Source of the DNA: an uncultured Verrucomicrobiae bacterium
GTDB taxonomy: Bacteria; Verrucomicrobiota; Verrucomicrobiia; Limisphaerales; Palsa-1400
Assembly: GCA_963702845.1 (NCBI GenBank)
Contig: OY969763.1
Coordinates: 2,816,001-2,880,000 of the forward strand
DNA length: 64,000 nt
Direction of reading: 5' to 3'
The notes under the pieces are model-generated. The model did not search any database. It was not told the DNA's origin and saw only the letters and a program-made list of their open reading frames with translations. The translations under genes were made by a program, and so were the position numbers. This document shows, piece after piece, positions 1 to 63,640 of the stretch; position 1 is the stretch's first letter; each line of letters opens with the position of its first letter.

Positions 1-207
1 CGAGTAAGCCGGAATTGAAACGGTTTATGCGCTCGCTCCAGTCGTATTTGCTGGACCAGTTTTTGACCGTGGGCAATTGCTCGCCGTGTTTGTCGGCGAC
101 GGCTTGCAGAGTACGGCGGTGGCCGAGGCGAAAGTAGGTCGTGAAAGCGTTGAAGGCACGTGGGGTTTCGCCGGGGGAACGGGAAAAGGTTGGTTGACAA
201 CCGACAT
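1..207 (-). CDS. Partial HTH protein resembling phage small-terminase-like DNA-binding proteins (runs off window; probable indel near start)
   Basis: Frame missing from the ORF track reads ...SPGETPRAFNAFTTYFRLGHRRTLQAVADKHGEQLPTVKNWSSKYDWSERINRFNSGLL. The ATG at 207 (MSVVNQPF) is in a neighbouring frame. Confidence 0.45.
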
Positions 208-18956: not shown

Positions 18957-20138
18957 TTATTTTTTATAAGTTCGGGTTGGATTCAGTTTGTAAACGCGGC
19001 CGCGGCAAGTCCGGATAATTTCCGGCGCAGCTGGTTTTTGCGGCGCTTTGATCTGGCAGGCGATGGCCCAGACAAAGCCGGTCAGTTCCCGCGCAATGGC
19101 CGTGACCACCACCACGCTCTTTTTACGAACCGATAGGAAGCGGAACCGTTTATGCAGTCGCTGTTGAGCTTTCCATGCGATCAAGCGGACTTCTTTGCTT
19201 TGTTTTTCCTGTCGTTTTTGCATGGCCTCGCTGACCTGCGGTTTGAGACGGTAATGCCAGGACGCTTCGGTGAGGACGCGCCGGCAGTGGGTGTTGCCGC
19301 ATTTAGTAATCCCACCTTGGCTGCGTTTTCCGCCGCTGCTGTGCTCGCAGGAAGTCAGTCCAAAAAAACTCATCAGCTGCCGCGGCTCAGTAAAGCGGGT
19401 CATGTCCCCAGCCTCAGCCACCAAAGTCATCCCGTTGAGCACTTGCACCCCACGCAAGCTCATCAGCCCGCGCACCACCGGTTCCCATTTCCAGCCCGAC
19501 AAAGAGTTTTCCACTGCTTGAGTCAGTCGTTCCAGTCGCTGGCTGGCGTCGTCGATCGTATGAATGCATTCCTGAAAGACGATTTGCTGCGCCGGTTGCG
19601 GCATGAGCAAGCCGGAGAGATAACGCTTGTGCGCATCGTTCCAACTGGTCTTGCCGCTGTAACGAAAACCCAGTCGCAACAAAAAGCCTTTCAAACGATT
19701 TCGGGCCTGGCGCTGGTCACACACCGCCGCAGTGCGGGCCCGGATCAAATCGCGGATAGCTTCATCCTCCTGATCAGGCACGTAGATGGCCCTCAGTTCT
19801 CCCGCCCGATAAAGACGGGCCAGTTGCTCGGCATCACGCCGATCAGTCTTCACCCGGTCGGAAGCCTTTTTGGGAATGAGCGAAGGCGACACCACATCGC
19901 ATTGGATGCCTTTGCTTTTAAGATAGCGATGAATGACAAAGCCGCAGGGACCCGCTTCGTAAACAAAACGCAGTTCAATGTTTTGTGCAGATAGTTTTTT
20001 GACGAGCTTTTCGACGGCTTCAAGGGCTCCGCCGATGATGCCGTAGGAACGGACCTCGGTGGTATCCTGCGGCGCGATGGCCACGGCAATAGTTTCTTTG
20101 TGGACGTCCAGACCGAGGTAATGCACGATTTTATTCAT
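18957..20138 (-). CDS. IS110-family DEDD recombinase
   Basis: GLDVHKE, YEAGPCG, KTDRRDA, GLTSCEHSSG, ITKCGN, AIAREL. Confidence 0.95.
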   Translation of the reverse strand: MNKIVHYLGLDVHKETIAVAIAPQDTTEVRSYGIIGGALEAVEKLVKKLSAQNIELRFVYEAGPCGFVIHRYLKSKGIQCDVVSPSLIPKKASDRVKTDRRDAEQLARLYRAGELRAIYVPDQEDEAIRDLIRARTAAVCDQRQARNRLKGFLLRLGFRYSGKTSWNDAHKRYLSGLLMPQPAQQIVFQECIHTIDDASQRLERLTQAVENSLSGWKWEPVVRGLMSLRGVQVLNGMTLVAEAGDMTRFTEPRQLMSFFGLTSCEHSSGGKRSQGGITKCGNTHCRRVLTEASWHYRLKPQVSEAMQKRQEKQSKEVRLIAWKAQQRLHKRFRFLSVRKKSVVVVTAIARELTGFVWAIACQIKAPQKPAAPEIIRTCRGRVYKLNPTRTYKK

Positions 20139-20566: not shown

Positions 20567-21112
20567 ATGCTTCGAGAAGCCGCACTCGAATATTTGAAGG
20601 CCAGGAACGCGAAGCCTAGTGAAACGGTTCAGTTGGGTTGGTTTGTCTTCCGGATAATCGCGACTGACCAGGGGCTTGACCTTGAGACATTAGACTTTAA
20701 GGCACTCGCCTCGTTTACTACAGATTTTGAAATTCCTGAGCGTGTTCATTGGGCTCAACAAGAGACGTTACGGCGTCTCGGTGCTTCGGCTATGGCTTGT
20801 ACGTTGAGCCAGCCAGCTCTTGTCAGTCGGTCGTATTCGCCCGGATCGAAACAGGCTTTCATCGAGCGCGGTCAGCTGACAAGCCAGTCCGATTCAGGCT
20901 GGTATGTCGGCGTCCTTGGCGACACATTGGATATGAGACTCGCTAGTTCTTTCGTCCACCAGTCGCTTTACGAGTTGTCTATTCGTGATCAGCGACTGGT
21001 CAGGTTTTGGCTGTTACCGGTCGGCTACCGTGTCTTTTTTGGTGACGATGAACCGAGAATCGAAAGGGTCGAACCAGACGGTGCAGCGAATGCGGCTTCG
21101 CCGCATCGCTGA
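20567..21112 (+). CDS. Cassette A4: Imm33/DUF2185-like hypothetical protein
   Basis: SDSGWYVG and FWLLPVGYRV motifs; bounded by the complementary cores GTTCGAC and GTCGAAC. Confidence 0.65.
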   Translation: MLREAALEYLKARNAKPSETVQLGWFVFRIIATDQGLDLETLDFKALASFTTDFEIPERVHWAQQETLRRLGASAMACTLSQPALVSRSYSPGSKQAFIERGQLTSQSDSGWYVGVLGDTLDMRLASSFVHQSLYELSIRDQRLVRFWLLPVGYRVFFGDDEPRIERVEPDGAANAASPHR

Positions 21113-27601: not shown

Positions 27602-28414
27602 TTACAGGTTATCAACCTTCGCTTCAATCACGGATTGAATGCTCGAAGGCACCGCCGAAAAGAAATTGTAACCGGTCCACGATTCGATCTGGTTTACGGA
27701 CGTGCGGTAGTTCTTCCAGTTGGCCGAGCGGATACCGCTGTTATTCGGGATGTCCACGGCAATCAGACGGGTGGAGGTGGTCACACGTGAAACGTCACTG
27801 GAACCATTTGGCAAGACCATGATGACCTTCCAAGTCGAGGTGGGGACCAGCACTCGTCCGCTATCGATGGTGGCTTTGGAACCGCGTCCACCGCTGATGA
27901 TATAAAGTTCATTTCCCGCCGAAACGAGGGATCGGCAATAATCTTCCAATACAGCCCACGGCCCCTGGTTATTGTCCGGGGTCTGCGGCACGATGTTCGA
28001 CATATAAAACGTCGCGGCATTGTCGGTCGAACTGGCGGTGCGGTCAGCCGAAGGGCACATATGTCCGCGATCATAGCCGCTGCTGGTGTAACTGCCAGTG
28101 GTCACATGATACCATGCTGATGGCAAATTCGAGTCAGACTTGAAACAATCGCAACGCGCGGCACTTCCTAAATCCAGCGGTCCAAGATGCCAGCTCACCC
28201 AATTCGGCACGCCATGGTCACGATGATAAGAATGCGCATATTGCGGCTTGGACATCAGATAATTGGAGGGGAAGTTAACATCGGTGGTCGCTCCACTCGG
28301 ATTTCCCATGGTGAGTTGAACGCTGGCGGTGGACTGGGCGACTACCGCGCTGGCGGTGAGCAGCAGCAGACAGGCTGTAGCTGCAATACGGCGGGTGAGG
28401 TTATTTTTCGACAT
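27602..28414 (-). CDS. Secreted DNA/RNA non-specific endonuclease (NucA-like)
   Basis: YDRGHMCPSADR, NIVPQ..NNQGPW; signal peptide. Confidence 0.93.
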   Translation of the reverse strand: MSKNNLTRRIAATACLLLLTASAVVAQSTASVQLTMGNPSGATTDVNFPSNYLMSKPQYAHSYHRDHGVPNWVSWHLGPLDLGSAARCDCFKSDSNLPSAWYHVTTGSYTSSGYDRGHMCPSADRTASSTDNAATFYMSNIVPQTPDNNQGPWAVLEDYCRSLVSAGNELYIISGGRGSKATIDSGRVLVPTSTWKVIMVLPNGSSDVSRVTTSTRLIAVDIPNNSGIRSANWKNYRTSVNQIESWTGYNFFSAVPSSIQSVIEAKVDNL

Positions 28415-28633
28415 AGGCTTTTTTGATTTTTTGGTTTAAGTGCCGAGGGTCGACTGCGATTGTTAAAGAACCAAAGAAGGGCTGTCAACCGGTTTCGCTC
28501 TGGCGCTCGTTTTAATTTCCAAAGCTCAACAAACAATTAAAGATGGAAAGCGACGGAAGGGACGAACTGAAATCAATCGCACGATGAAGCTGGATCCGTT
28601 GCCAATGCGCTGCTGACGATTCTATGGGCGGGT

Positions 28634-28660
28634 TTCTTCCGCTCGTAGCCGCCAACGTAA
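28634..28660 (+). repeat. Direct repeat of the antiporter 3' end (25204-25230), running into a GTAG-type REP
   Basis: ttcttccgctcgtagccgcc(g/a)acg(c/t)aa; upstream reads LLTILWAGFFRS* versus LFALLWFLFFRS*. Confidence 0.7.
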
Positions 28661-28894
28661 GGCGGCGGATTATTTCGACGTCGCAATTCGCTGCGTTTCA
28701 CGGTTGTTCAACGTCCGGTGAACACGCAGACAATCACCCTGCTTTATGACTTCTTCTGGCACCAAGTAGCGAAATCACTACTTAGCGCAAATAGATTCAC
28801 GATTGACCCGCATCAAAGACGCCTCTGTCAAACAATGTCACACTCGCAAAAAGCACTGGGATGCGTCGGGCTCTCGGCGAGAAAGATACAGAAT

Positions 28895-29018
28895 CCCCCT
28901 CAATGACTTGAGGCGGAGGCGTCGGCGGGTTAACGACAAAGTCGCGAAACGACACAATCTCCGGCAAAGGCTGCGGCACAGCGCCAAGATCAACCGCAAT
29001 GTCAATTTGCTCGCTCAT
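28895..29018 (-). pseudogene. 5' fragment of a RepA/AAA_25-like helicase gene
   Basis: MSEQIDIAVDLGAVPQPLPEIVSFRDFVVNPPTPPPQVIEG, truncated before any Walker A motif. Confidence 0.55.
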
Positions 29019-29038
29019 TCAAAGCACCTGCCTACCCT

Positions 29039-29716
29039 GTGAGCGTGGAACGCCGATGGAAAATTGCGCTTGCAGTCGTTGCGACTGCCGCGATTTCTGC
29101 CGCCGTTCTCCTGACAATCAGGAATGACGAGCCCACATACCAAGGCCGCAGGCTCTCTGAGTGGGTTATCGACGTCAGCACCTATCACTTCGGCATTAGA
29201 ACCAACGTGGCTGAAGGGAGCGTGCCGGTTGAGGCTGTCCTTGCAATAGGAACAAATGCTCTGCCATGGATGGTCAACTGGATTGCCTCCGAACCGACTG
29301 GACAATATGCCCAGTTGCGATGGGAGATTCCGGTGCTCAGCAAGCTCGCGGTACGCGAGACCGCCCTCGTAAGGGGATCGCGCGATATGCTCAATCACTA
29401 TGAGACCAACACAGATCCCGCTGTTCCTTTGATAACCGAACAATTGCAACGCTTGCAACCGTCGCCTGCCGTCGAAGAGCTGGGCTACACACTTCTCAGT
29501 ATCGGGTCCCCCGCCGCGGTAGCAGCACTCTGCAATTGTATCACGAACACGAAAATGTCCGTCGATAATCGGCTGCTCCTGATCTACGAGCTTGAAACGC
29601 ACTGGAGTGTGAGTGATCGCGATATGAACATGGAGGTGGCGTTGACTAACTGCCTTGCCGACCCAATGCCGGAAATTAGGGGAGCAGCTCAAAGATGTCT
29701 GCGGGCCCGCCAGTAG
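29039..29716 (+). CDS. Membrane-anchored HEAT-repeat-like protein 1 (GTG start at 29039 or 29045)
   Basis: TM segment, EPTYQGRRLSEW, IGTNALP, LADPMPEIRGAA. Confidence 0.75.
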   Translation: MSVERRWKIALAVVATAAISAAVLLTIRNDEPTYQGRRLSEWVIDVSTYHFGIRTNVAEGSVPVEAVLAIGTNALPWMVNWIASEPTGQYAQLRWEIPVLSKLAVRETALVRGSRDMLNHYETNTDPAVPLITEQLQRLQPSPAVEELGYTLLSIGSPAAVAALCNCITNTKMSVDNRLLLIYELETHWSVSDRDMNMEVALTNCLADPMPEIRGAAQRCLRARQ

Positions 29717-29769
29717 GCACCACAGTCCACCGATTGAACGAATTTCTTGTTCGGTTGAGTTCATTGAAC

Positions 29770-29880
29770 CCTCAACCCAACGAGTTTCTGCAGCCGTCCA
29801 TCCCTGAAAGCCCCCGGGACACGGACCGCTTGTCGCCACAGCGCCAAGATCAACCGCAATGTCAATTTGCTCGCTCATTC
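29770..29880 (-). repeat. Junction: helicase 5' end fused to primase 3' end
   Basis: Encodes MSEQIDIAVDLGAV joined out of frame to VRVPGAFRDGRLQKLVGLR. Confidence 0.85.
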
Positions 29881-29882
29881 CG

Positions 29883-30128
29883 TCATTTCACTCGCCACAA
29901 GCGCAAGTAGCGCCAATCGGGTTGTTGTTTGACACGAAGCTTCCAACCATTGCGCCGGCACGTCGCATAAATGTTCGGCATCGGCGGCTCGCACAGCAGC
30001 ACGCTGTCGCCGATTTCCATGCTCCGGATCAGCGTTGCCCATTTCGCGCCACGGGCCCAACGGTTGCCCACGGGTTTTGTGGGCGGGAGTGGAATGCTCT
30101 TGTCGATTTTGAACTCAGTCTCACTCAT
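29883..30128 (-). CDS. Small phage-type putative DNA-binding protein
   Basis: MSETEFKIDKSIPLP...MEIGDSV...LRLWRVK. Confidence 0.6.
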   Translation of the reverse strand: MSETEFKIDKSIPLPPTKPVGNRWARGAKWATLIRSMEIGDSVLLCEPPMPNIYATCRRNGWKLRVKQQPDWRYLRLWRVK

Positions 30129-30168
30129 AGTCATTTTCGCTCGCTCATTCAAAGCACCTGCCTACTCT

Positions 30169-30876
30169 GTGTACGTGAAGCGTCAGTGGAAAATTGCGAT
30201 TGCTGGTGCGGCGCTGATTGCAATCGTCGCCGCTATCAAGCTGACCGGCTCCGAACCGGAATACAAAGGCCGCAAACTTTCGGAGTGGATATCTGAGTGC
30301 AAGTACGCTTATTCGGAGGCACAGCCGAAGGAAGCCGCCCAAGCATTGCGTGAAATGTGCCCAACCGCTCTTCCGACACTTGTCGATTGGATAGGTTATG
30401 AAAAGTCGGATCAAACCAAGCGTGTGGAGAACTTCATCTGGGAGATTGCCGAGAAACTTGGCGTGGGAGCAAAGTTCGACCTTATGACGCGAAAAGGAGA
30501 AAACCGTGTAAACACGGCCTTCGACGCGTTCGAGGTCCTCGGGACAAATGCGGCGCCTGCCATTCCACAACTCTCGAATATGGTTATGAATGCAAACAAT
30601 CCCGGTACCGCCGCCAGTCGTGCGCTCTCGGCCCTTGCGTTGATTGGAAAATCGGGAAAACAAACGATTGTCTCGCTGCTGCACGATGCAAACAACCCCC
30701 ACCGCTCGCAAACTCTGGACGGCTTGTTTTACTTTTCTGTCGTGGATCGCGACACTCTCATAAAAGAAATCAACCAACACCTGACAAATTCCGACGTACA
30801 AACGCGCACAACCGCTACCAATCTTTTGCAATCTTTGCGCAAAGTGGAGAAGATGCGCAAATCGGCCGCGCAATAA
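30169..30876 (+). CDS. HEAT-repeat-like protein 2
   Basis: EPEYKGRKLSEW, LGTNAAPAIPQL, VQTRTTATNLL. Confidence 0.78.
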   Translation: MYVKRQWKIAIAGAALIAIVAAIKLTGSEPEYKGRKLSEWISECKYAYSEAQPKEAAQALREMCPTALPTLVDWIGYEKSDQTKRVENFIWEIAEKLGVGAKFDLMTRKGENRVNTAFDAFEVLGTNAAPAIPQLSNMVMNANNPGTAASRALSALALIGKSGKQTIVSLLHDANNPHRSQTLDGLFYFSVVDRDTLIKEINQHLTNSDVQTRTTATNLLQSLRKVEKMRKSAAQ

Positions 30877-30920
30877 CCGCACAAAACTGTTTGTCTCCGT
30901 TCTCATCCGTAATTTCACTC

Positions 30921-31055
30921 CCTCAACCAAACGAGTCTCTGCAGCCGCCCATCCCTGAAAGCCCCAGGAACACGAACCAGTTGCCGCCACAGCACCAAGA
31001 TCAACCGCAATGTCAATTTGCTCGCTCATTCAACGCACCTGCCTACTCTGTGAAC
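30921..31055 (-). repeat. Second helicase/primase junction plus cargo leader
   Basis: Highly similar to 29770-29880, with the same crossover point. Confidence 0.85.
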
Positions 31056-31757
31056 GTGAAACGACGGTGGAAAATTGCGATTGCCGCAGCAGCGCTGATT
31101 GCCATTGTCGCTTCGCTTGAATTGGCAACGCGCGATCCCGAACCGAGTTACCACGGTCGCACGCTTTCGGAATGGGTTTCTGCTTACAAACCGCTGTACT
31201 TCTCTGCTCGTCGGAACGAAGACCTCAACAGCGCAAGAACAAGCGAAGTCGGGCAGGCGTTGCGCGAGATGAATCCAGCCGCGCTTCCCACTCTCGTTGA
31301 GTGGATTGGCTATGAAATACCCACTTCCCCGCCTTATTTCGAATACGCTGTGTCTCGCGTCTTTGGATACGACAGCAGGTTGTACGCAATGATAACCAAG
31401 AAAAAGGCACGCATCTGGGAAACGGTGATAGCCTTCGATGCACTCGGAACGAATGCGTCTCCCGCGATCCCACAGCTCACGACTATGGTCATCAACTCCA
31501 AGCATCCTGACTCTGCTCGGCCTGCGCTTGAGGCTATGGCAGCGATCGGCAAACCTGGAATGCAAGCGATGGTCGCGCTCCTTCACAATCCGAACAACCC
31601 CTATCGGGAAGTCACTTTGGATAGACTTAAGTTGTGTGCTTCTATTGATCAAAAAACGGTGACAGACGAGGTTCGGCAGAGCCTGACTGATGCTGATCCG
31701 CATATGCGTAGCACCGCCCGGTTCGTATTGTACTGTCTCGAGCATTCCTCGCATTGA
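31050..31757 (+). CDS. HEAT-repeat-like protein 3
   Basis: EPSYHGRTLSEW, LGTNASPAIPQL, LTDADPHMRSTA. Confidence 0.78.
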   Translation: MNVKRRWKIAIAAAALIAIVASLELATRDPEPSYHGRTLSEWVSAYKPLYFSARRNEDLNSARTSEVGQALREMNPAALPTLVEWIGYEIPTSPPYFEYAVSRVFGYDSRLYAMITKKKARIWETVIAFDALGTNASPAIPQLTTMVINSKHPDSARPALEAMAAIGKPGMQAMVALLHNPNNPYREVTLDRLKLCASIDQKTVTDEVRQSLTDADPHMRSTARFVLYCLEHSSH

Positions 31758-31823
31758 CGGCTCGTTTGTCTGATGTGAAGCAGCGTTCATCTGTGGTTTG
31801 TTTCGATTCATCGTGGCCGTCTG

Positions 31824-32108
31824 CTAAGACCTCAACCAAACGAGTTTCTGTAGCCGTCCGTCCCTGAAAGCCCCAGGCACACGGACCGGTTGCGAATACG
31901 TAAAAACTTTCGGATCACACCCAAACACCTCGAGCGCGGCCTTCAATCGCCCCTCGTGCAAACGAGTGCGCGGCGCATCAAACCACGCGTGCAAAGATTT
32001 GCCCGCCGTATCAATGATGCAGTGCAGCTTGTAACGAAGCCGCCGCCGAACGTAAGCGAACACCGCGCCGACTTCGTCGCGGCTCAACGTCTCCGATTCC
32101 AAAACAAG
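31824..32108 (-). pseudogene. 3' fragment of a phage/plasmid primase (AEP/RepB-like)
   Basis: LESETL...IIDTAGKSLHAWF...GCDPKVFTYSQPVRVPGAFRDGRLQKLVWLRS* (GKSLH and RxPG motifs). Confidence 0.65.
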
Positions 32109-32117
32109 TGGACCGAG

Positions 32118-32832
32118 TCAGTTTGAAGCCTTCACCGCTGCGACATGCCAGTCGAAGAAAAGTTCGTTGCGTATGTTGCCGTGCGCGGGGGCAGGCGCCA
32201 GATACGAGTAATAGCCGGCGATGGTGACGGCGTTCTGCTGGTCGCTATCCGTCATCGCCCAAGACGATGATGGGATGTAGATTTCGTGCAAGCGCTTTGG
32301 GAGTTCGTCGGGCTTGGTATATGGTGGAGATGAGTACGGATAGCCGAACGGCCTGCTCACCACCTCGGTGTCCAGGTTGGTGACGGTTGACGCGGCTACA
32401 TAGCTCAACGGCACGTGGATGGACGCCGGGTCGGGGTCCACAGACGGTTTCCATTTCAATGCTGCAGTCGGGCATCGGGAAAGCAAGTTGGTCCTCGCCG
32501 TCGAAGCGGGCGCGGGCAGCCCCATGTAAGTGGCGATGTAATAGGAGAGCCGAAGCCGGTTCTGATTATCGGTACTCTTCATAAAAGCCCTGCCAGACCG
32601 GACCGGGCAATTGATCCCCATGTTCATCCGCATAGAGTTGAAGCGCCAAGCCAACCTGTTTCAGATTGTTGATACATTTGGTTCGCCGCCCTTTTTCCTT
32701 GGCCGCGGCTAAGACCGGCAGCAACAGGGCCGCCAGAATCGCGATGATGGCAATGACGACAAGGAGTTCAATTAACGTAAATGCGACAATACGGTGTCGC
32801 CGCCCTGCCGCAAATTGTTGGAACTTCCGCAT
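32118..32832 (-). CDS. Prepilin-type N-methylation / H-X9-DG (DUF1559-like) protein, frameshift near 32575
   Basis: [23 protein letters not shown]...[21 protein letters not shown]. Confidence 0.82.
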
Positions 32833-57041: not shown

Positions 57042-58652
57042 CTATTCAACTGTCAGCCCAACCATAAAGGGAACACTAATTGTTTTATCCGAGACATAAT
57101 CGATCGTCGACAGCGTTAGGTTTGAATGGGGATTGATAAAAGTTGTCCGATACAACACCAGCGATTCGTCGGGCTGCATCCTTTTAATCATCGGGTTCAT
57201 TCCAACCCAGGCTGGTTCGGTCAACGAATCCGTTTTGAGATTCAATGAATTCACACCCGTCTTGAACAACGGAGCCCACCAGTCCCAAACGTTTACCCCA
57301 GGAACAATGCGTAGTTCACTTTTACTGCCATCAGAAAAATGAAGGACCAACTGCCCGATCGGCTGTCCAGCCATCTCGAACGAAATGAGTCCCGCGCCAT
57401 GAAGAATATGAATCTTGCTGCACTGTCGATCGATCCGGATGTCCTTCACCCTCGCTGGATAATCATTTCCCTTCTTATAATGATCAAGCCACCCGCCAGT
57501 AAGATATACAGCTCCCTCAACGTCAAATGGCACACCTCCGAAAATGTGCGTTCCAGTCGGTAACTGCGCCAAATTATCCGAATTATCGCCTTTGTCCCCC
57601 AACGGCCCGTCAGCCAACTTCGTGTTAACGTATGGCTTCAAATCAATCGTCACTGCATCCGTCGTGTCGTTGACTTGTTGCCTCGCCTTGATCTCTTCCT
57701 CCCTCGCCCGTTTTTCACCCGGCCAAACTTCCGCACGAAGTTTTAAGATTTCTGCTCGGTGCGGACTCTTTTTAAACACGCGGTTCATCGAATTATCGAG
57801 GACAGAACCGGGTATGGAAGCAAACCGCTGCCGAAGAGCCGCTTTTTCTGCAGCTTGCCGCTTCGCCGCCACGCTCTTCAAAATCACCGTTGCGGTCCCT
57901 GCCAATAACAAGACAACCGCCGCGCCGATTACCGTTTTCGTTTTTGACCAAGCCATGAATTTTATTGCTCCTTTTACGAGGGTTAAAGTCGAACTACTCA
58001 CGACGACCCCGTGGATCGCCGTGGTAGTTACCGTTCCTGCCAAGCCGATCGGCGCGGCCTGCACCGAGTTTCCCGAAATCGCAGCCACGAGGATGACTGA
58101 GGTAAGCGTGACTCCTTGTTTGCTGAAGAACCGTCGAAGTTTGTCGACCGCGCGCGTCGTTCGTTTGTGCGCTGCCCATTCGCCGATTCCCAAGACGCTG
58201 GCTGTTTCCGATGCCGATTTGTTCTCGAAAAACCGCATCGCCAAAATGGCGCGCTCATTAGAGGTCAGGTTTTCCATCGCTTGCTCTAGAAACGGCGCGA
58301 GTCGGGCCCATGCCTCCTCAGGGCCAAGTTCAGAATTCAACGTCTGCATAGCTGCATCTCGTTCTCGGATTTCCCGGCGAAGTCTCGACCTTAACAGTCT
58401 TTTCGAAGTAAACCGTGTCGTTTCATACAACCAACCCACGAGAACCGTACGCGGGCTCAATCGGTTCGCCTTGCGCGCCAGAATCAGGAAGACCACTTGC
58501 GCCACCTCCTCGGCGTCACGTGCATCACCGACGCGACGCAACGCCGCGGAATACACCATATTCAGATGGCGTTTAACCAGCTCGGCAAAAGCCGATTCCG
58601 AGCCATTATCGGCAAACTCTCGCAATAGCTCCATGTCATCTGGCTCGGCCAT
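57042..58652 (-). CDS. ECF sigma factor with TM segment and beta-sandwich-like C-terminal extension
   Basis: DMELL..F..LVKRH..VYSAA..AQVVF..LARKA; sigma4 region; TM near aa 240-260. Confidence 0.88.
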
Positions 58653-58743
58653 CTAAATAAGTAATCCCCGACCGCGGCGAAATTGGACATCTATTTTCAC
58701 AAATGTCTCCGCCACGACCGGGGATGATGCCCACCCGCACCTC

Positions 58744-60354
58744 CTACTTGAAATCCGCCGCTGAAAAATTCTGGTTCACCTGAATATTTTCCTGCGTTTG
58801 CGTGTAGATAAACTCACCCGACTTCATTGCTTTGGTCGTGTTCTTCATCATCGAATCCATTCTAGCGCGCACCTCCGCTATCGCCTCCGGAGTCACCGGT
58901 TTTTTTTGTACCCGAAGCATCTCGGAAAGGTCGGCATCGGATAGCTTTATTTCAGCCGAACTCATCGTAACGGAAGTTCGGGTGCGCCGGATCAAGTGGT
59001 CCTGTTTGCCAATCCAAAATGTGTTTTTAAGTTTCCCAACTCGCGAAGCCATTTTGCCTGCGAGACCAGCTTGTTTGGGAATTGCACTTGTATCCAACTC
59101 CATCGTGATCACGAAGCAATCCGCTTCGCCAACCTTCTCATCCTTTCCTTTTGTCTGACGCGAACTCCCACTCTTCGCGGAACTCAACATATTTCCCCAA
59201 CCCTGGTTGAAAAACACGGACGGTATCATCGAGGCCGCCAGCGACGACACGCCAGTCGCCGAACCAATTGCCAACTGCATATTCTGAAATTTCTGCACTT
59301 TCCCTTGCACGCCGCCCGCACCAGTCATCTGAAAATAGTCCCCCGTCCCGTCGTTCCAAGTCGCACCTGTGCTGGTAAACGCACCACCGGTTTGTGTCCA
59401 ATCGACGTGATACAATTGCGGGCGTTGCAACCGAATGTTGAATGCTGTTTCCGTGTTTGCACCACCCCCACTCACAAGGACCGTTCCGCTGCTGCTGTAA
59501 CTCGATAGCGCCGCATACGCGTCCATCGTGCCTTTCACGATTTGTTGCGCTGCCGCGTCGCTTCCATTCGCTGTTTTCGAAATCGCCACCGTCGCCACAC
59601 CGCCAATGAATAAAGCTGCTACGCCCACACCGATTGCTGTTTTCGCCTTTGACCATGCCATAAGTTTAAGTGCTCCTTTAACTAGGGTTATTGTTGAACT
59701 GCTGACGGCGGCCCCCTTGGCCGCCGTCGCAGTTACCGTTCCTGCCAAGCCAATCGGTGCTGCCTGCACCGAGTTGCCCGAAATCGCTGCTCCGATGATC
59801 GCGGTCGTAGAAACCACGCCACGCTTGCTAAATAATTTCCGCAGCTTCTCCAACGCGCGGGCAGTCCGTTTATGCGCCGCCTGCTCATTGATGTTCATCA
59901 ACGCCGCCGCTTGCGCCGCGCTTTTGTTTTCATAGAAACGCAAAGCCAACAGCGCCCGATCCTTTTCACCCAATCGCGACATCGCCGTTTCAAGATGTGG
60001 CGCAAGTTGAGGCCAAACACCTTCGTCGTCGGATTGGTTCAAGTGCGATTGCATATACGCTTCCTGTTCCCGCGATCGGCGGCGCGACTGTGCCCGCAAA
60101 AATCCGGCTGCGGTGAACCGCGTAGTTTCGTAAAACCAACCAGTTAACACAGTGCGATCGCCCAATTTGGCTGCTTTTTTTGCGAAGATAACGAAGACAG
60201 CTTGCGTGACGTCGTGGGCCTCGGCATCGCCGGTCAGACGCAACGCCACGGAATACACCAGATTGATGTGACGCCGAACCAGCTCAGAAAACGCTGGTTC
60301 TGATTCCTGGTGCACAAATTGCCCCATCAATTCCATGTCGCTGACATCCTGCAT
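58744..60354 (-). CDS. ECF sigma factor with TM segment and LolA/DUF2092-like extension
   Basis: Same N-terminal module; YAALSSYSSSG...LQRPQLYHV. Confidence 0.88.
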   Translation of the reverse strand: MQDVSDMELMGQFVHQESEPAFSELVRRHINLVYSVALRLTGDAEAHDVTQAVFVIFAKKAAKLGDRTVLTGWFYETTRFTAAGFLRAQSRRRSREQEAYMQSHLNQSDDEGVWPQLAPHLETAMSRLGEKDRALLALRFYENKSAAQAAALMNINEQAAHKRTARALEKLRKLFSKRGVVSTTAIIGAAISGNSVQAAPIGLAGTVTATAAKGAAVSSSTITLVKGALKLMAWSKAKTAIGVGVAALFIGGVATVAISKTANGSDAAAQQIVKGTMDAYAALSSYSSSGTVLVSGGGANTETAFNIRLQRPQLYHVDWTQTGGAFTSTGATWNDGTGDYFQMTGAGGVQGKVQKFQNMQLAIGSATGVSSLAASMIPSVFFNQGWGNMLSSAKSGSSRQTKGKDEKVGEADCFVITMELDTSAIPKQAGLAGKMASRVGKLKNTFWIGKQDHLIRRTRTSVTMSSAEIKLSDADLSEMLRVQKKPVTPEAIAEVRARMDSMMKNTTKAMKSGEFIYTQTQENIQVNQNFSAADFK

Positions 60355-60452
60355 CTACATAGTATTGGCCGGTCAGCGTTGGAACTGGACATTTTATTTG
60401 AACGCCCCAGCGGCGTCAGCCAACCTCAGGCAGCGAACGGCTAGGCCCAGGT

Positions 60453-61877
60453 TCACGCCTTCGGTCGAGAGAAGACGTCGTCGGCCACCGCCTCATTGCG
60501 TTTGACCTCGGTGAACTTAAGCGTCCAGTGTTCCGCTCCGCTCTGGCGCAAAACGAACGGCAATACTAACCCGTCAATCTCCCGATAATCCTCACCATCC
60601 ATTTGATACTGCTGAGCCCCGATTGCGTAATTGATCCGAACCAACAACCCTGTCTGCGTATCGAACCACAATTGCGGCGATTGGTCCTGTAACTTCACTT
60701 CAACAACATAGGCCGAACGTTTGCCGATCGGTTCCTTACCTTTGAGGCTGGCCTTCGGAAGCAGCGCGGCGAGAGAATCACCTCGATAAGCACCCAAAAT
60801 AATTCCCGTCACGAGCGCGTTAACCGGATCCAAATCAGGACCTCCCCATGGAGAGACTTCCCACCCAGCCACTCCATCGAACCCGCGACGGAAAACCGGG
60901 TTACCTCCCGCCTTGAGCACCTCAAGCCAACGATCTGGCGCCTTGACTATCGCCGCGGCGTCCAGCGTTCCTAACCCATCTCCACTTTCGAAAACGCCCT
61001 TCATCGTCAGCGTCGTCGTCTTGTCTGCGCCGGCCATCGGACCTTTGCTTTTCGTGTAGCGCGCAAAAATTTCGGCAACCGTTGGCGATGAAGAAACATT
61101 CTTCGAGACCACCGTTACCGTTCCTGCGGCAAGCAAAACTGCCACACTCGCGATGATACCGACTTTTACCTTTGACCATGCCATAAGTTTGATTGCTCCT
61201 TTTACGAGGGTTGATGTTGAACTGCCGATGGCCGCTCCTTTAGCCGCCGTCGCAGTAACCGTTCCTGCCAAGCCAATCGGCGCTGCCTGCACCGAATTAC
61301 CCGAAATTGCCGTCGCAATGATCGCCGTCGTCGAAACCACACCGCGTTTGCTGTAAAACTTGCGCAATTTATCCAAAGCCCGTGACACGCGTTTTTGCGC
61401 AGTATCCGGGTCAACGCCTAGAATGTTTCCAACTTCGTTGAGCGGTTTTTGCTGGTAGAACCGCAAAACGATTGCGCTACGATCACGCTCGTTGAGTTGG
61501 GCCACCGCTTCGTCGAGCAGCGGCGACATTTGCGCCCATGCTTTCGCATCGGGTTCATTCAAGAGCGATTGCATATACGCCTCCTGTTCGCGGTGCAGCC
61601 GTCGATATTCCGTCCTCCGGGTATTGCGCGCTACGAAATGCGCAGTGCGACAAAGCCAGCCGGCGAGCACCGTCGTATCACTCAGCTTCCCGGCTTTTTG
61701 AGCGAGGATTATAAAAACAGCCTGCGCGACTTCCTGGGCCTGCTCTGGATTCTGAACTTGTCGCAATGCGGCGGAATAGACGAGAGCGATATATCGCTCC
61801 ACCAGCATGGAAAAGGCTTCTTCCGATTGCCGGGAGGCGTAAGCAGACAATAATTCCGCGTCATCCAACTCGCTCAT
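60453..61877 (-). CDS. ECF sigma factor with TM segment and LolA-like extension
   Basis: Same module; KAPDRW, GFDG, WFDTQTGLLVR, DYREIDGLVLPF. Confidence 0.88.
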   Translation of the reverse strand: MSELDDAELLSAYASRQSEEAFSMLVERYIALVYSAALRQVQNPEQAQEVAQAVFIILAQKAGKLSDTTVLAGWLCRTAHFVARNTRRTEYRRLHREQEAYMQSLLNEPDAKAWAQMSPLLDEAVAQLNERDRSAIVLRFYQQKPLNEVGNILGVDPDTAQKRVSRALDKLRKFYSKRGVVSTTAIIATAISGNSVQAAPIGLAGTVTATAAKGAAIGSSTSTLVKGAIKLMAWSKVKVGIIASVAVLLAAGTVTVVSKNVSSSPTVAEIFARYTKSKGPMAGADKTTTLTMKGVFESGDGLGTLDAAAIVKAPDRWLEVLKAGGNPVFRRGFDGVAGWEVSPWGGPDLDPVNALVTGIILGAYRGDSLAALLPKASLKGKEPIGKRSAYVVEVKLQDQSPQLWFDTQTGLLVRINYAIGAQQYQMDGEDYREIDGLVLPFVLRQSGAEHWTLKFTEVKRNEAVADDVFSRPKA

Positions 61878-61940
61878 TACCTATAATTGTCTGCCCGCGA
61901 AAGAATCCGACAATTTAATTTGCGAGAAGCCTGGCGCAGG

Positions 61941-63242
61941 TCACTTCAATCGTGAGACATAGACAAACACCAGCAGGGTTTCCGGCGCGTCCCCCTCGAT
62001 TTTGCTGTTTAAAACAACCGTCTGCCCGGAAGCGACCGCCAAAGTCTGTTCTTTTATGTTGGTTACGCGAATCGAAGGCGACGGCCCATCCACCAAGTCC
62101 CGCAATTCAGCTTCAACCTTCAACGCAATCCTCGAATCCCGCTCAACTACAGGTGTCACACTCAGGGTGGTTCCGACAAACGCGTTTGTGCCGATGGCCT
62201 CGACCGTTTTCTGCATTGAACCCGTCGCTCCCATACCAGTGGCGGTGGTAATACCGGGCGCATCATATAAAGTGACACCCGGGTGTTTATTGATAAGCGC
62301 GCGAAATGCCTTCGTGCTGGGGTCGACAGGAATCACTGGCTTTGCGAACTCCTCGAGAATGGCGCTGACATTCCCGGTTGGAGTTCTGACGAACAAGCCT
62401 TTGATCAAGACCTGCGCTTTTTTGCCGGAATTATTTTTGCTACCGAAGGGGGTTGCCGTCCCTTTGTCAGACAGCGCTACTGTGGCCACGCCACCCGCCA
62501 ATAAAATTCCTGCGGCGATACCGAATGCCAATTTGAGTTTTGCGTAGGTCATAATCTTGAGCGTTCCTTTCACTAGGGTTGAGGTTGAACCGTTGATTGC
62601 TGCGCCACTGACAACAGATCCTGAAATTGTTTGGGCCAAAGAAATCGGGGCGGCCTGCACCGAATTACCCGAAATTGCCGTCGCAATAATTGCGGTCGTG
62701 GAAACCACACCGTGTTTGCTGAAATACCTGCGCAACTTTTCAAGGCTGCGATTGACACGCATCTTGGACGCATCCTCACTTGCGCCCATCGCTGCGCCGA
62801 CGTCCTTAAAATTCTTATCTTGATAGAACCGGAGCACGATTGCGTCTTGTTCCTTCTCGCCCAATCCGGCAATCGCGGTTTCAAGCAGCGGCGAGAGTTG
62901 AGCCCACGCGTCAATTTCTGGTTCATGGCTGCTAGATTGCATGTAAGCCTCCTGTTCGCGTGCAAGCCGGCGGCGCTGTTGTTTCAACGCGTCAGCCGAA
63001 GCAAATCGTGCGGTGCGACAAAGCCACCCGGGAAGAATCGTCTTACTGCTGAGCGAACCCGCCTTGCGCGCAAGAACGATGAACACCGCTTGTGTGACAT
63101 CCTGCGCCAGGTCTGCGTCCGTCACTTGTCGCAGTGCAACGGAATAGACGAGATTAACGTGCCGCGCGACGATCGAGGCAAAAGCCTCCTCGGAGCCCGT
63201 CTCCGCATACCTTCGCACCAAATCCATGTCGTCACTCGTCAT
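61941..63242 (-). CDS. ECF sigma factor with TM segment and secretin-like extension
   Basis: Same module; APGITT...[11 protein letters not shown]...VASGQTVVL. Confidence 0.85.
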
Positions 63243-63640
63243 CTCGCCTATATATGGACGCCCAAGCAGAAAAGTAACTGACTATTTCGCAACCCTAACC
63301 CGCGAAGCCACTCCGAAGCCCCGTAGGGCGACATAATTATAGCCCAGGGTGAAAGCGCGGCCTTGAGGGCCCACGCGAAGCGTCCTCGTAATAACTTGTT
63401 CTGATGTGCGCCGCAACCCTGGGTAAACCGCCTCAATCGCAGATTCACTTTGCCGAAGGCGCGACGAAGGAGTTAAAAACCCATCTTCAGCAAGTGCCGC
63501 CAAACCTGCGCACCCCCAAAAAACCTGTTTGGATATCAATTGCTAGGCCACACTACACGCCCGTGCATTCCAAGCTAAGTATCTTGGCGCTGTGCCTGCT
63601 GATCGCAGGTTGTTCGTCCGTCGACTCTAAAACGACCTGA

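Follow-up and report, generated by a model that had tools for sequence, protein, structure and literature searches.

How can three strongly diverged genes of one protein family stand in tandem in a bacterial chromosome while the short joints between them, made from the ends of two phage genes, have stayed nearly alike? This question is raised by an array in the genome of an uncultured Verrucomicrobiae bacterium (GTDB lineage Verrucomicrobiota, Verrucomicrobiia, Limisphaerales, Palsa-1400; GenBank assembly GCA_963702845.1, contig OY969763.1). The stretch analyzed, called the window here, comprises 64,000 nucleotides (nt) at positions 2,816,001 to 2,880,000 of the forward strand. Coordinates marked "window" refer to it, and the others refer to the single 6.03-Mb contig of the genome (C1). 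The array spans window 28896-32108 and contains three co-oriented HEAT-like genes on the + strand (H1, H2, and H3) and one small gene on the - strand, bounded by a 41-codon 5' stub of a helicase gene on the left and a 94-codon 3' stub of a primase-like gene on the right. It is probably what is left in the chromosome (3.2 kb) of the primase-helicase insertion hotspot of a Verrucomicrobial prophage family, in which one illegitimate crossover at a microhomology between related phages was followed by homologous extension and re-stocking within the gene ends. The original prediction, made from the sequence alone, had read the locus as a concatenated library of alleles of one phage hotspot; it is largely right on what the array is and plausible on how the array works.

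Structure of the Array

The left boundary corresponds to codons 1-41 of a phage AAA_25/DnaB-like helicase gene (window 28896-29018, - strand). Downstream of codon 41 the sequence is unrelated, and the open frame extends to 28797. The right boundary consists of the last 94 codons and the stop codon of the primase-like gene (window 31824-32108, - strand). The three HEAT-like genes all start with GTG: H1 (window 29045-29716, +) encodes 223 amino acids (aa) with a predicted N-terminal membrane anchor, and H2 (window 30175-30876, +) and H3 (window 31056-31757, +) encode 233 aa each. The predicted arrangement of three diverged HEAT-like genes and a small gene between a helicase 5' stub and a primase 3' stub was confirmed with full-length genomic copies of the two stub genes.

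The units are linked by two joints (window 29769-29880 and 30920-31031), which show 91% identity over 112 nt with the repeat finder and correspond to the conserved junctions described in the prediction. Each joint, read on the - strand, links the first 47 nt of the helicase gene (15 codons, ATGAGCGAGCAAATTGAC...) to the final 63 nt (21 codons) of the primase-like gene, and the two parts are out of frame with each other. The primase part of joint 1 (- strand; the last ~63 nt of the gene) lies at window 29770-29832 and is 92% identical to genome 132031-132093, and the helicase part, with the first 15 codons, lies at 29834-29878. Joint 2 (window 30921-31029, - strand) has its 63-nt primase part at 30921-30983 and its 15 helicase codons at 30985-31029; the helicase parts of the two joints differ once, at a third codon position. 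Together with the copy inside the terminal stub (31830-31892), the 63-nt primase-end block is present three times with 87-90% identity. A 100-nt block of helicase start and leader is shared between window 28974-29073 and 30985-31084 with 91% identity, and a partial copy is present at 29834-29880. The crossover point is at the same place in both joints, beside the microhomology GGTTGCG/GGCTGCG, as had been noticed earlier. The joints contain one additional base and substitutions there, and thus do not represent a clean product of these two motifs.

Each HEAT gene is preceded by a conserved 26-nt leader, which for H1 lies at window 29019-29044 (+; TCAAAGCACCTGCCTACCCTGTGAGC) and contains the hexamer TACCCT. 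The leader is 81-92% identical across the three window units and the copy in a resident prophage at 131 kb, and is likewise present in the loci L014, L028, L073, and L076 from outside this genome. The whole conserved stretch comprises the leader and the first 45 nt of the HEAT coding sequence. The predicted hexamer TAC(T/C)CT was recovered 6 nt ahead of the second GTG in all three window HEAT genes and in 8 further copies at other loci.

The small gene (window 29883-30131, - strand) encodes 82 aa from an ATG at 30131, in the sense orientation of the phage. The 20-nt repeat that had been seen to bracket it is real (window 29862-29881 and 30130-30150). It represents a degenerate second copy of the helicase start (30130-30150, - strand; ATGAGCGAGCGAAAATGAC), placed between the small gene and the leader of H2. 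The final codons of the small gene and the adjoining spacer resemble the primase end and its spacer. A 15-nt direct repeat, TCCGT[C/A]ATTTCACTC, at window 29879-29893 and 30906-30920 encloses the complete cargo of unit 2. Read along the phage strand, it resembles the primase stop codon and the short spacer preceding the helicase ATG, and the end of the small gene thus appears to mimic the primase end.

Identity of the Stubs and the Resident Prophages

The stubs had been expected to match primase and helicase profile models. The stubs themselves gave no Pfam or PHROG match, and their identity was taken from the full-length copies, of which the helicase matches strongly and the primase weakly (phrog_2597). 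The left stub (window 29018->28896) corresponds to residues 1-41 of a 341-aa protein encoded at genome 132859-133881 (90% aa identity in tblastn). This protein matches Pfam AAA_25 at 1.6e-28 and positions 339-546 of phrog_2597 at 3.1e-51, which strongly indicates that the left stub is the N-terminus of an AAA_25/DnaB-like helicase. The right stub (window 32108->31827) corresponds to residues 261-354 of a 354-aa protein encoded at genome 131035-132096, with 97.9% aa identity, and 93.4% nt identity over 302 nt. The C-terminal 100 residues of this primase-like protein align to the phrog_2597 primase of a second prophage (hhalign probability 91.6%), and it contains what we take to be ExD and SGxxxHxW motifs, spotted by eye. 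Searches of PDB sequences with the protein and its profile yielded nothing beyond chance matches to antibodies. The right stub may weakly be assigned to the C-terminus of a DNA primase.

The full-length copies belong to a prophage at 131-136 kb with the gene order PD-(D/E)XK nuclease, primase-like gene, antisense HEAT gene, AAA_25 helicase, terS, and terL. Neighbouring stretches of the phrog_2597 profile are matched by the primase-like gene (weakly) and by the helicase gene, and the two therefore look like the split halves of a primase-helicase with the cargo at the seam. The second prophage, at 4.83 Mb, has another primase and another helicase. Downstream of these lie an antisense HEAT gene, a 169-nt 5' stub of a helicase gene, terS, and terL, in that order. 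This order suggests that the HEAT gene travels together with the helicase start. A lone terS-terL pair is also present at genome 2814199-2816187, which ends at window 1-187, 29 kb from the array; its terL shows 65% aa identity to that of the 131-kb prophage.

The Primase-Helicase Interval in Related Phages

Related loci support the proposal that the primase-helicase interval is an insertion hotspot of this phage family. An exact 20-mer from the helicase start retrieved 14 metagenome stretches and one further locus from a metagenome-assembled genome (MAG). The interval is empty in a prophage of a same-genus MAG (G015:C119; L029), where the stop codon of the primase and the start codon of the helicase overlap in ATGA, and in L077, where the helicase directly follows the primase. 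One HEAT gene lies between the primase and helicase genes in L013, L068, and L075. Other cargo is found in L067 (one HEAT gene, an HNH-like open reading frame (ORF), and another ORF), in L076 (one HEAT gene and a Cys-rich secreted protein, with a joint between them), in L066 (an HNH-like ORF and a small ORF beginning with a copy of the helicase start), and in L072 (a similar small ORF). The duplicated helicase start is thus also found ahead of the inserted small ORFs of L066 and L072 and ahead of cargo in L076. The count of hotspot states covers the seven loci with at least 148 aa of both the primase and helicase genes, and all seven carry 0 or 1 HEAT gene.

The composition of the HEAT genes is host-like and differs from that of the phage backbone. 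Their GC content is 52-56% and their GC content at third codon positions (GC3) is 55-62%, compared with 57-59% and 64-69% for primase, helicase, and terL. The lower GC3 of the cargo is as expected for a moron.

The HNH-like ORF of L066 and L067 encodes 110 aa (CxxC ... CHNRHD) and is located at the primase/helicase boundary; the Pfam HNH match in L067 (E = 0.0045) is below the cut-off, and there is no match in L066. It may be a homing endonuclease that renders this boundary prone to recombination. Another stack of small genes is present at genome C1:396772-398925, where two 3'-end stubs of terL, 92.8% identical over 125 nt, enclose small genes whose products carry an N-terminal membrane or signal helix. 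Among them is one with 92% nt identity to a gene downstream of terL in the 131-kb prophage. These terL stubs point to a second hotspot in the genome with the same pattern.

Old Cargo between Young Flanks

The flanks of the units are far more conserved than the cargo, as had been predicted. Across six unit pairs, the nt identity is 87-96% for the 47-nt helicase part and 87-95% for the 63-nt primase part, and the two joints differ by 9%. The protein identity of the cargo is 28-30% between H1 and H2 or H3, and 48% between H2 and H3. The rate of synonymous substitution (dS) and its ratio to the non-synonymous rate (dN/dS) were estimated from codon-aligned pairs, covering those 22 of the 55 pairs whose aa identity exceeds 36%. 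The dS value is 2.17 for H2-H3 and 0.9-2.7 for most other pairs, with one value of 6.0 and one uncomputable (-1), and dN/dS is ~0.1-0.5.

The nearest relative of each window gene is found outside the array. H1 is 81% identical to P0001 from a JGI (Joint Genome Institute) metagenome, against 28-30% within the array; H2 is 78% identical to P0010, against 30-48%; and H3 is 57% identical to P0003, against 28-48%. In a tree of 27 rows, each window gene pairs with its outside relative with support of 99-100 in the Shimodaira-Hasegawa-like approximate likelihood ratio test (SH-aLRT), and H1 clusters with P0001 and unit 4 of L073. These are quick trees with SH-aLRT, from which fragments were excluded (the cut unit c of L028, and both halves of unit 3 of L073, which has an in-frame stop). 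The approximately unbiased (AU) test rejects a clade of H1, H2, and H3 (p = 4.8e-8) as well as a clade of H2 and H3 (p = 0.0014). The saturated dS, the closer relatives outside, and the AU rejection together indicate a concatenation of old, divergent hotspot alleles and not a plain duplication, in line with the prediction.

The history to be weighed against this is an old tandem duplication of one HEAT unit with fast protein divergence, in which regulatory selection or gene conversion kept the joints and leaders alike. The junction is indeed identical at each unit boundary and the leader with the first 45 nt of coding sequence is conserved, but an H2-H3 dS that is saturated beside ~9% joint divergence, with dN/dS below 1, is difficult to reconcile with it. 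Other chromosomal HEAT paralogues also stand in tandem, and H2, H3, and two prophage HEAT genes grouped together before outside sequences entered the tree; once they entered, each array member had a closer relative outside and array monophyly was rejected. The differences in the stubs and joints are moreover of the synonymous type, unlike those of dead DNA. Plain tandem duplication is thus largely refuted by these comparisons, and we regard it as highly improbable.

Between the terminal primase stub and the live gene there are 19 differing sites, which fall on the three codon positions as 1, 1, and 17 (17 synonymous and 2 non-synonymous codons), and the differences of the helicase stub are distributed as 2, 2, and 15. 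Such mostly synonymous differences are unlike the decay of dead DNA, and suggest that the stubs diverged as parts of working genes and died recently. The variable sites among the dead primase ends are distributed as 1, 1, and 6 in the window (two joints and the terminal stub) and as 1, 0, and 3 in the three joints of L073. Pooled, 9 of 12 variable sites are at third positions (binomial P = 0.0039), a test weakened by its size of 12 sites and by the terminal stub in its window part, since a hand count of the joint copies alone gives 7 of 10. The joints of one array share their crossover and hence a common origin; a third-position bias among joints of the same origin then points to later partial replacement by recombination with live primase genes. 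In this small sample, homologous exchange with live phage genes seems to have acted on the gene ends, as in their predicted role as recombination arms.

Similar Arrays and Their Joints

Arrays of the same architecture were found in other assemblies. The 4.25-kb contig G015:C102 of the same-genus MAG consists entirely of an array with the order helicase stub (~165 nt), HEAT_a, primase stub (242 nt), a repeat element resembling repetitive extragenic palindromes (REP), helicase stub (~165 nt), HEAT_b, joint, and HEAT_c. The joint between HEAT_b and HEAT_c fuses 43 nt of primase and 43 nt of helicase in frame, HEAT_c is cut by the contig end, and a 23-nt remnant of a further primase stub is present at the left edge. 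The metagenome contig L073 carries four or five HEAT genes (one of which is interrupted by an in-frame stop codon), three joints of ~59 nt of primase and 20 nt of helicase, and a terminal 345-nt primase stub; its neighbours are chromosomal (MFS transporter, LOG-like, GH10, and PepSY). In L076, a joint of 36 nt of primase and 23 nt of helicase separates two different cargo genes, and the locus includes 212 aa of helicase on one side of it and 173 aa of primase on the other.

The element between the stubs of the G015 array (L028:1328-1454, 1630-1680, and 2877-2996) is a dispersed repeat with a GC-rich hairpin (CCCAGGGT...ACCCTGGG), similar to REP or miniature inverted-repeat transposable elements. 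Dozens of copies are present in the window's genome, including one at window ~63413-63489 (genome 2879413-2879489).

An order-wide scan with the 20-mer, allowing at most 2 mismatches, matched 29 of 401 genomes, and clustered copies were found only in the window's genome (the MAGs G014 and G015 are outside this sample). The same 20-mer gave 0 matches in the viral contigs scanned. Two matches in genome contigs, of Paenibacillus and Bifidobacterium, were set aside as chance, uninspected. For the gene on the left flank of the G015 array, the window's genome has just a 51% homologue, at 5.72 Mb; the two arrays are thus probably at different loci, although the MAG is fragmentary. Synteny of the chromosomal flanks in two same-genus MAGs gave short paralogous matches only, and no empty chromosomal site was recovered from them.

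The recurrence of the architecture in independent assemblies (G015:C102 and L073) bears on the possibility that prophage reads were collapsed or chained through the shared 110-nt repeats. The units do share repeats of 47-112 nt with 87-96% identity, but each unit has unique cargo, the genome is assembled as one 6.03-Mb contig, and two other HEAT loci in it carry different alleles. An assembly artefact is scarcely credible under these circumstances.

Five types of joints are present in the four loci. In the window, 47 nt of helicase and 63 nt of primase are joined twice; in L073, 20 nt and ~59 nt three times; in L076, 23 nt and 36 nt once; and in G015:C102, 43 nt and 43 nt once, in addition to the ~165-nt helicase and 242-nt primase stubs with the REP-like element, which occur twice. 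Each type is re-used within its own array. This diversity argues against a site-specific enzyme, and fits rare illegitimate events followed by homologous re-use.

An enzyme such as an HNH-like homing endonuclease might cut the boundary between primase stop and helicase start and move cassettes in an integron-like manner. The HNH-like ORFs exactly at this boundary in L066 and L067, the duplication of the first 20 nt of the helicase at every cargo boundary, and the identical crossover within each array would be compatible with such a system. In the window, the prediction that an integrase is not nearby agrees with a Pfam scan of 57 ORFs, which revealed neither an integrase nor a tRNA or another phage gene, and no integrase or endonuclease gene of such a system was found in or near the array. 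An IS110-family transposase is encoded 9 kb away (window 18957-20138, - strand; DEDD_Tnp_IS110 and Transposase_20). The joints have no inverted repeat with the repeat finder and no attC-like fold, the DNA folding z-scores being +0.62, -1.02, +1.87, and +1.06 relative to shuffles. With five joint types in four loci as well, we consider site-specific or endonuclease-driven cassettes very unlikely.

Proposed Origin of the Array

The origin of the array in exchange between related phages can be outlined as follows. An unequal crossover between helicase position +47 of one phage genome and primase position -63 of another would produce the order primase, cargo a, joint, cargo b, and helicase. Both essential outer genes would remain intact in this product, giving a two-cargo phage. 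Such a joint-bearing phage could gain further cargo, or replace what it has, by unequal homologous exchange with single-cargo relatives, and the joint would stay the same. Arrays of unlike cargo would persist, because just ~110 nt of repeat is left through which the units can collapse. The prophage backbone would later be deleted, and the cargo would be kept intact under purifying selection. The identical crossover in both joints needs no special site; a single illegitimate event and re-use of its joint are enough.

Serial lysogeny in the chromosome would reach a similar structure by another way. Whole related phages would integrate Campbell-style, through homologous recombination, into a primase or helicase stub already present, and the backbone between helicase 5' and primase 3' would be deleted, with one cargo gained in each round. 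This would suit the non-phage chromosomal context of the three long arrays, the limit of one HEAT gene in the seven phage loci with both genes, and the terminal stubs, which are freshly dead copies of live genes. Independent deletions would also give joints that differ between arrays. They would not reproduce the crossover that is identical within an array (twice in the window, three times in L073, and twice in G015), so that re-use of an existing joint is required for the later units at least, and the joint of L076 has long parts of both phage genes at its sides. Serial lysogeny is therefore judged unlikely as the source of the array.

Several observations weigh against the origin of the array by a crossover between phages and joint re-use. 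The three long arrays (window, G015:C102, and L073) are all outside a phage context, and a joint between long parts of both phage genes is known from L076 only, on a 2.6-kb contig; stacking in the chromosome is equally as possible as stacking inside the phage. Across its 110-nt repeats, the array is known from the assembled contig. The primase assignment is weak: the primase-like protein has no Pfam or NCBIfam match, three of four homologues match phrog_2597 "DNA primase" weakly at positions 214-315 (best E 0.0034), and the AlphaFold2 (AF2) model from a 4-sequence alignment (predicted local distance difference test, pLDDT, 39.6) is too poor to use. The tree without outside proteins grouped H2, H3, and the two prophage HEAT genes of the genome with SH-aLRT 96. 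Some diversification within the phage pool of this host is therefore likely, and these four genes may share one regional pool. P0001, P0010, and P0003 could also be orthologous array members of sister strains. The claim that each cargo gene has its own promoter was not borne out, as no sigma-70-like promoter or cargo-flanking terminator was found in window 28400-32400, and the array offers just the conserved 26-nt leader.

A wider speculation, in which we place little confidence, is that Verrucomicrobial chromosomes keep an integrase-free archive. The fused joint would act there as portable homology arms that harvest HEAT alleles from each infecting related phage and widen a repertoire of exclusion or immunity, and gene-end stubs would serve likewise at the terminase-end hotspot.

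The Cargo Proteins and Neighbouring Genes

The HEAT proteins are ~225-235 aa in length. Each has one hydrophobic helix in addition to a basic N-terminus, shares the conserved motif EPxYxGRxLSEW, and contains HEAT-like repeats. H1 and H2 score 272 and 333 bits with the HEAT-family profile. The Pfam HEAT_2 scores of these proteins (25.4-27.8 bits) are around the cut-off of 27.7, and H3 (1.7e-5, 25.4 bits) is below it. The AF2 model of H3 (pLDDT 86.6) consists of an N-terminal helix and an all-helical alpha-solenoid, whose best Foldseek matches are designed armadillo-repeat proteins (E 8e-4, template modeling (TM) score 0.26-0.28), a generic similarity. The family has 15 matches in the window's genome and is present in 23 of 31 family genomes.

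PADLOC recognized no defence family among the window genes, and gave one weak, generic HEAT-ARM match on the L014 allele. The membrane anchor, the antisense placement in a replication module, the many old alleles, and the intact frames with dN/dS below 1 after phage loss suggest a role that serves the lysogen. As a guess, the cargo may be membrane-anchored protein binders that act, for example, in superinfection exclusion or immunity. HEAT-repeat immunity proteins in Verrucomicrobia and Planctomycetes are listed in PMC3482391.

The small gene has no Pfam, PHROG, NCBIfam, or PADLOC family, and no homologue was found in the 30 other family genomes searched. The closest Atlas clusters, at 0.88-0.89 and thus below 0.9, consist of viral hypothetical proteins and are leads only.

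HEAT paralogues are also found in chromosomal tandem runs of 2-5 genes away from detected phage stubs (G014:C445:559-4256, G015:C3:3819-5805, and genome C1:1734133-1735566). A longer HEAT-family gene is located near a ribosomal-protein operon in a contig of an uncultured Verrucomicrobiota MAG (L063:5066-6139), with ~66 nt of helicase start just upstream (77% identity). It looks like a solitary, domesticated remnant of cargo and stub in a distant genome.

A secreted DNA/RNA non-specific endonuclease is encoded immediately to the left of the array, at window 27602-28414 (- strand; Pfam Endonuclease_NS, 4.7e-54). An Imm33-like protein is encoded after the IS110 transposase, at window 20567-21112. 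At window 57042-63242 (- strand), four tandem paralogues (433-536 aa) have N-terminal sigma-70 regions 2 and 4 of the extracytoplasmic function (ECF) type and long C-terminal extensions, one of them with a weak Secretin match.

Comparison with Known Systems

The array shows that phage accessory genes can be stacked and kept in a bacterium without a site-specific recombinase. In one illegitimate crossover, the ends of two essential phage genes would become a joint that can be used again, and cargo could afterwards be gained or exchanged by ordinary homologous recombination. The signature is searchable, since the 5' end of a core gene is fused to the 3' end of its upstream neighbour and repeated between divergent genes, and could reveal such stores in other phyla. 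The membrane-anchored HEAT-repeat family is the main fast-turnover cargo of these little-studied Verrucomicrobial phages and is a candidate for tests of exclusion and immunity.

The stacking resembles the genomic accordions of poxviruses, in which one illegitimate breakpoint makes a novel junction that is repeated at the unit boundaries through unequal homologous recombination. The same junction is likewise found at every unit boundary of the array. The copies in accordions are recent and near-identical, whereas the units here have saturated synonymous divergence.

Integron arrays also consist of co-oriented single-gene units with a short conserved boundary element and serve as a stored library. 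In contrast to integrons, no intI or attC-type folded site was found in the array, the joints vary between arrays, and each unit has its own conserved leader.

The polyimmunity loci and silent cassette arrays of polymorphic toxin systems, as presented in PMC3482391, also combine tandem divergent alleles with a short conserved stretch for homologous exchange. Unlike polyimmunity loci, including those with Imm-HEAT, the units here are complete genes of phage origin, no toxin partner was identified (no search aimed at toxin domains was made), and the link to immunity is only a lead.

The nearest described system is the shuffling of PeSL (promoter-early/stem-loop) cassettes. According to PMC2839356, these cassettes shuffle ORFs in the hyperplastic regions of T4-type phages, and recombination between repeats gives mini-circles. 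As in the array, short conserved repeats flank variable ORFs between conserved core genes, and recombination without a dedicated recombinase is proposed there to delete, insert, and move single genes. The PeSL repeats are composites of an early promoter and a stem-loop terminator, whereas the repeats here are the fused ends of two replication genes, with a fold no stabler than that of shuffles. The long arrays are moreover found in phage-stripped chromosomes, and their cargo is mostly of one protein family with many divergent alleles.

Phage morons and accessory hotspots, such as those of P2/P4, share with the present interval a variable, compositionally distinct, and oppositely oriented gene between core genes that are contiguous in relatives. 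Fast turnover of alleles between conserved flanks is also common to both (bioRxiv 10.1101/2024.10.15.618418, in whose main text "tandem" and "duplicat" occur nowhere). No description of hotspot alleles piled up one after another through fused gene ends was found in the limited literature collection searched. Known hotspots hold one variable cargo block per phage, while several alleles are stacked in tandem here by fused gene-end joints and have been kept after phage loss. The array is a variant of the known shuffling of phage hotspots and morons.

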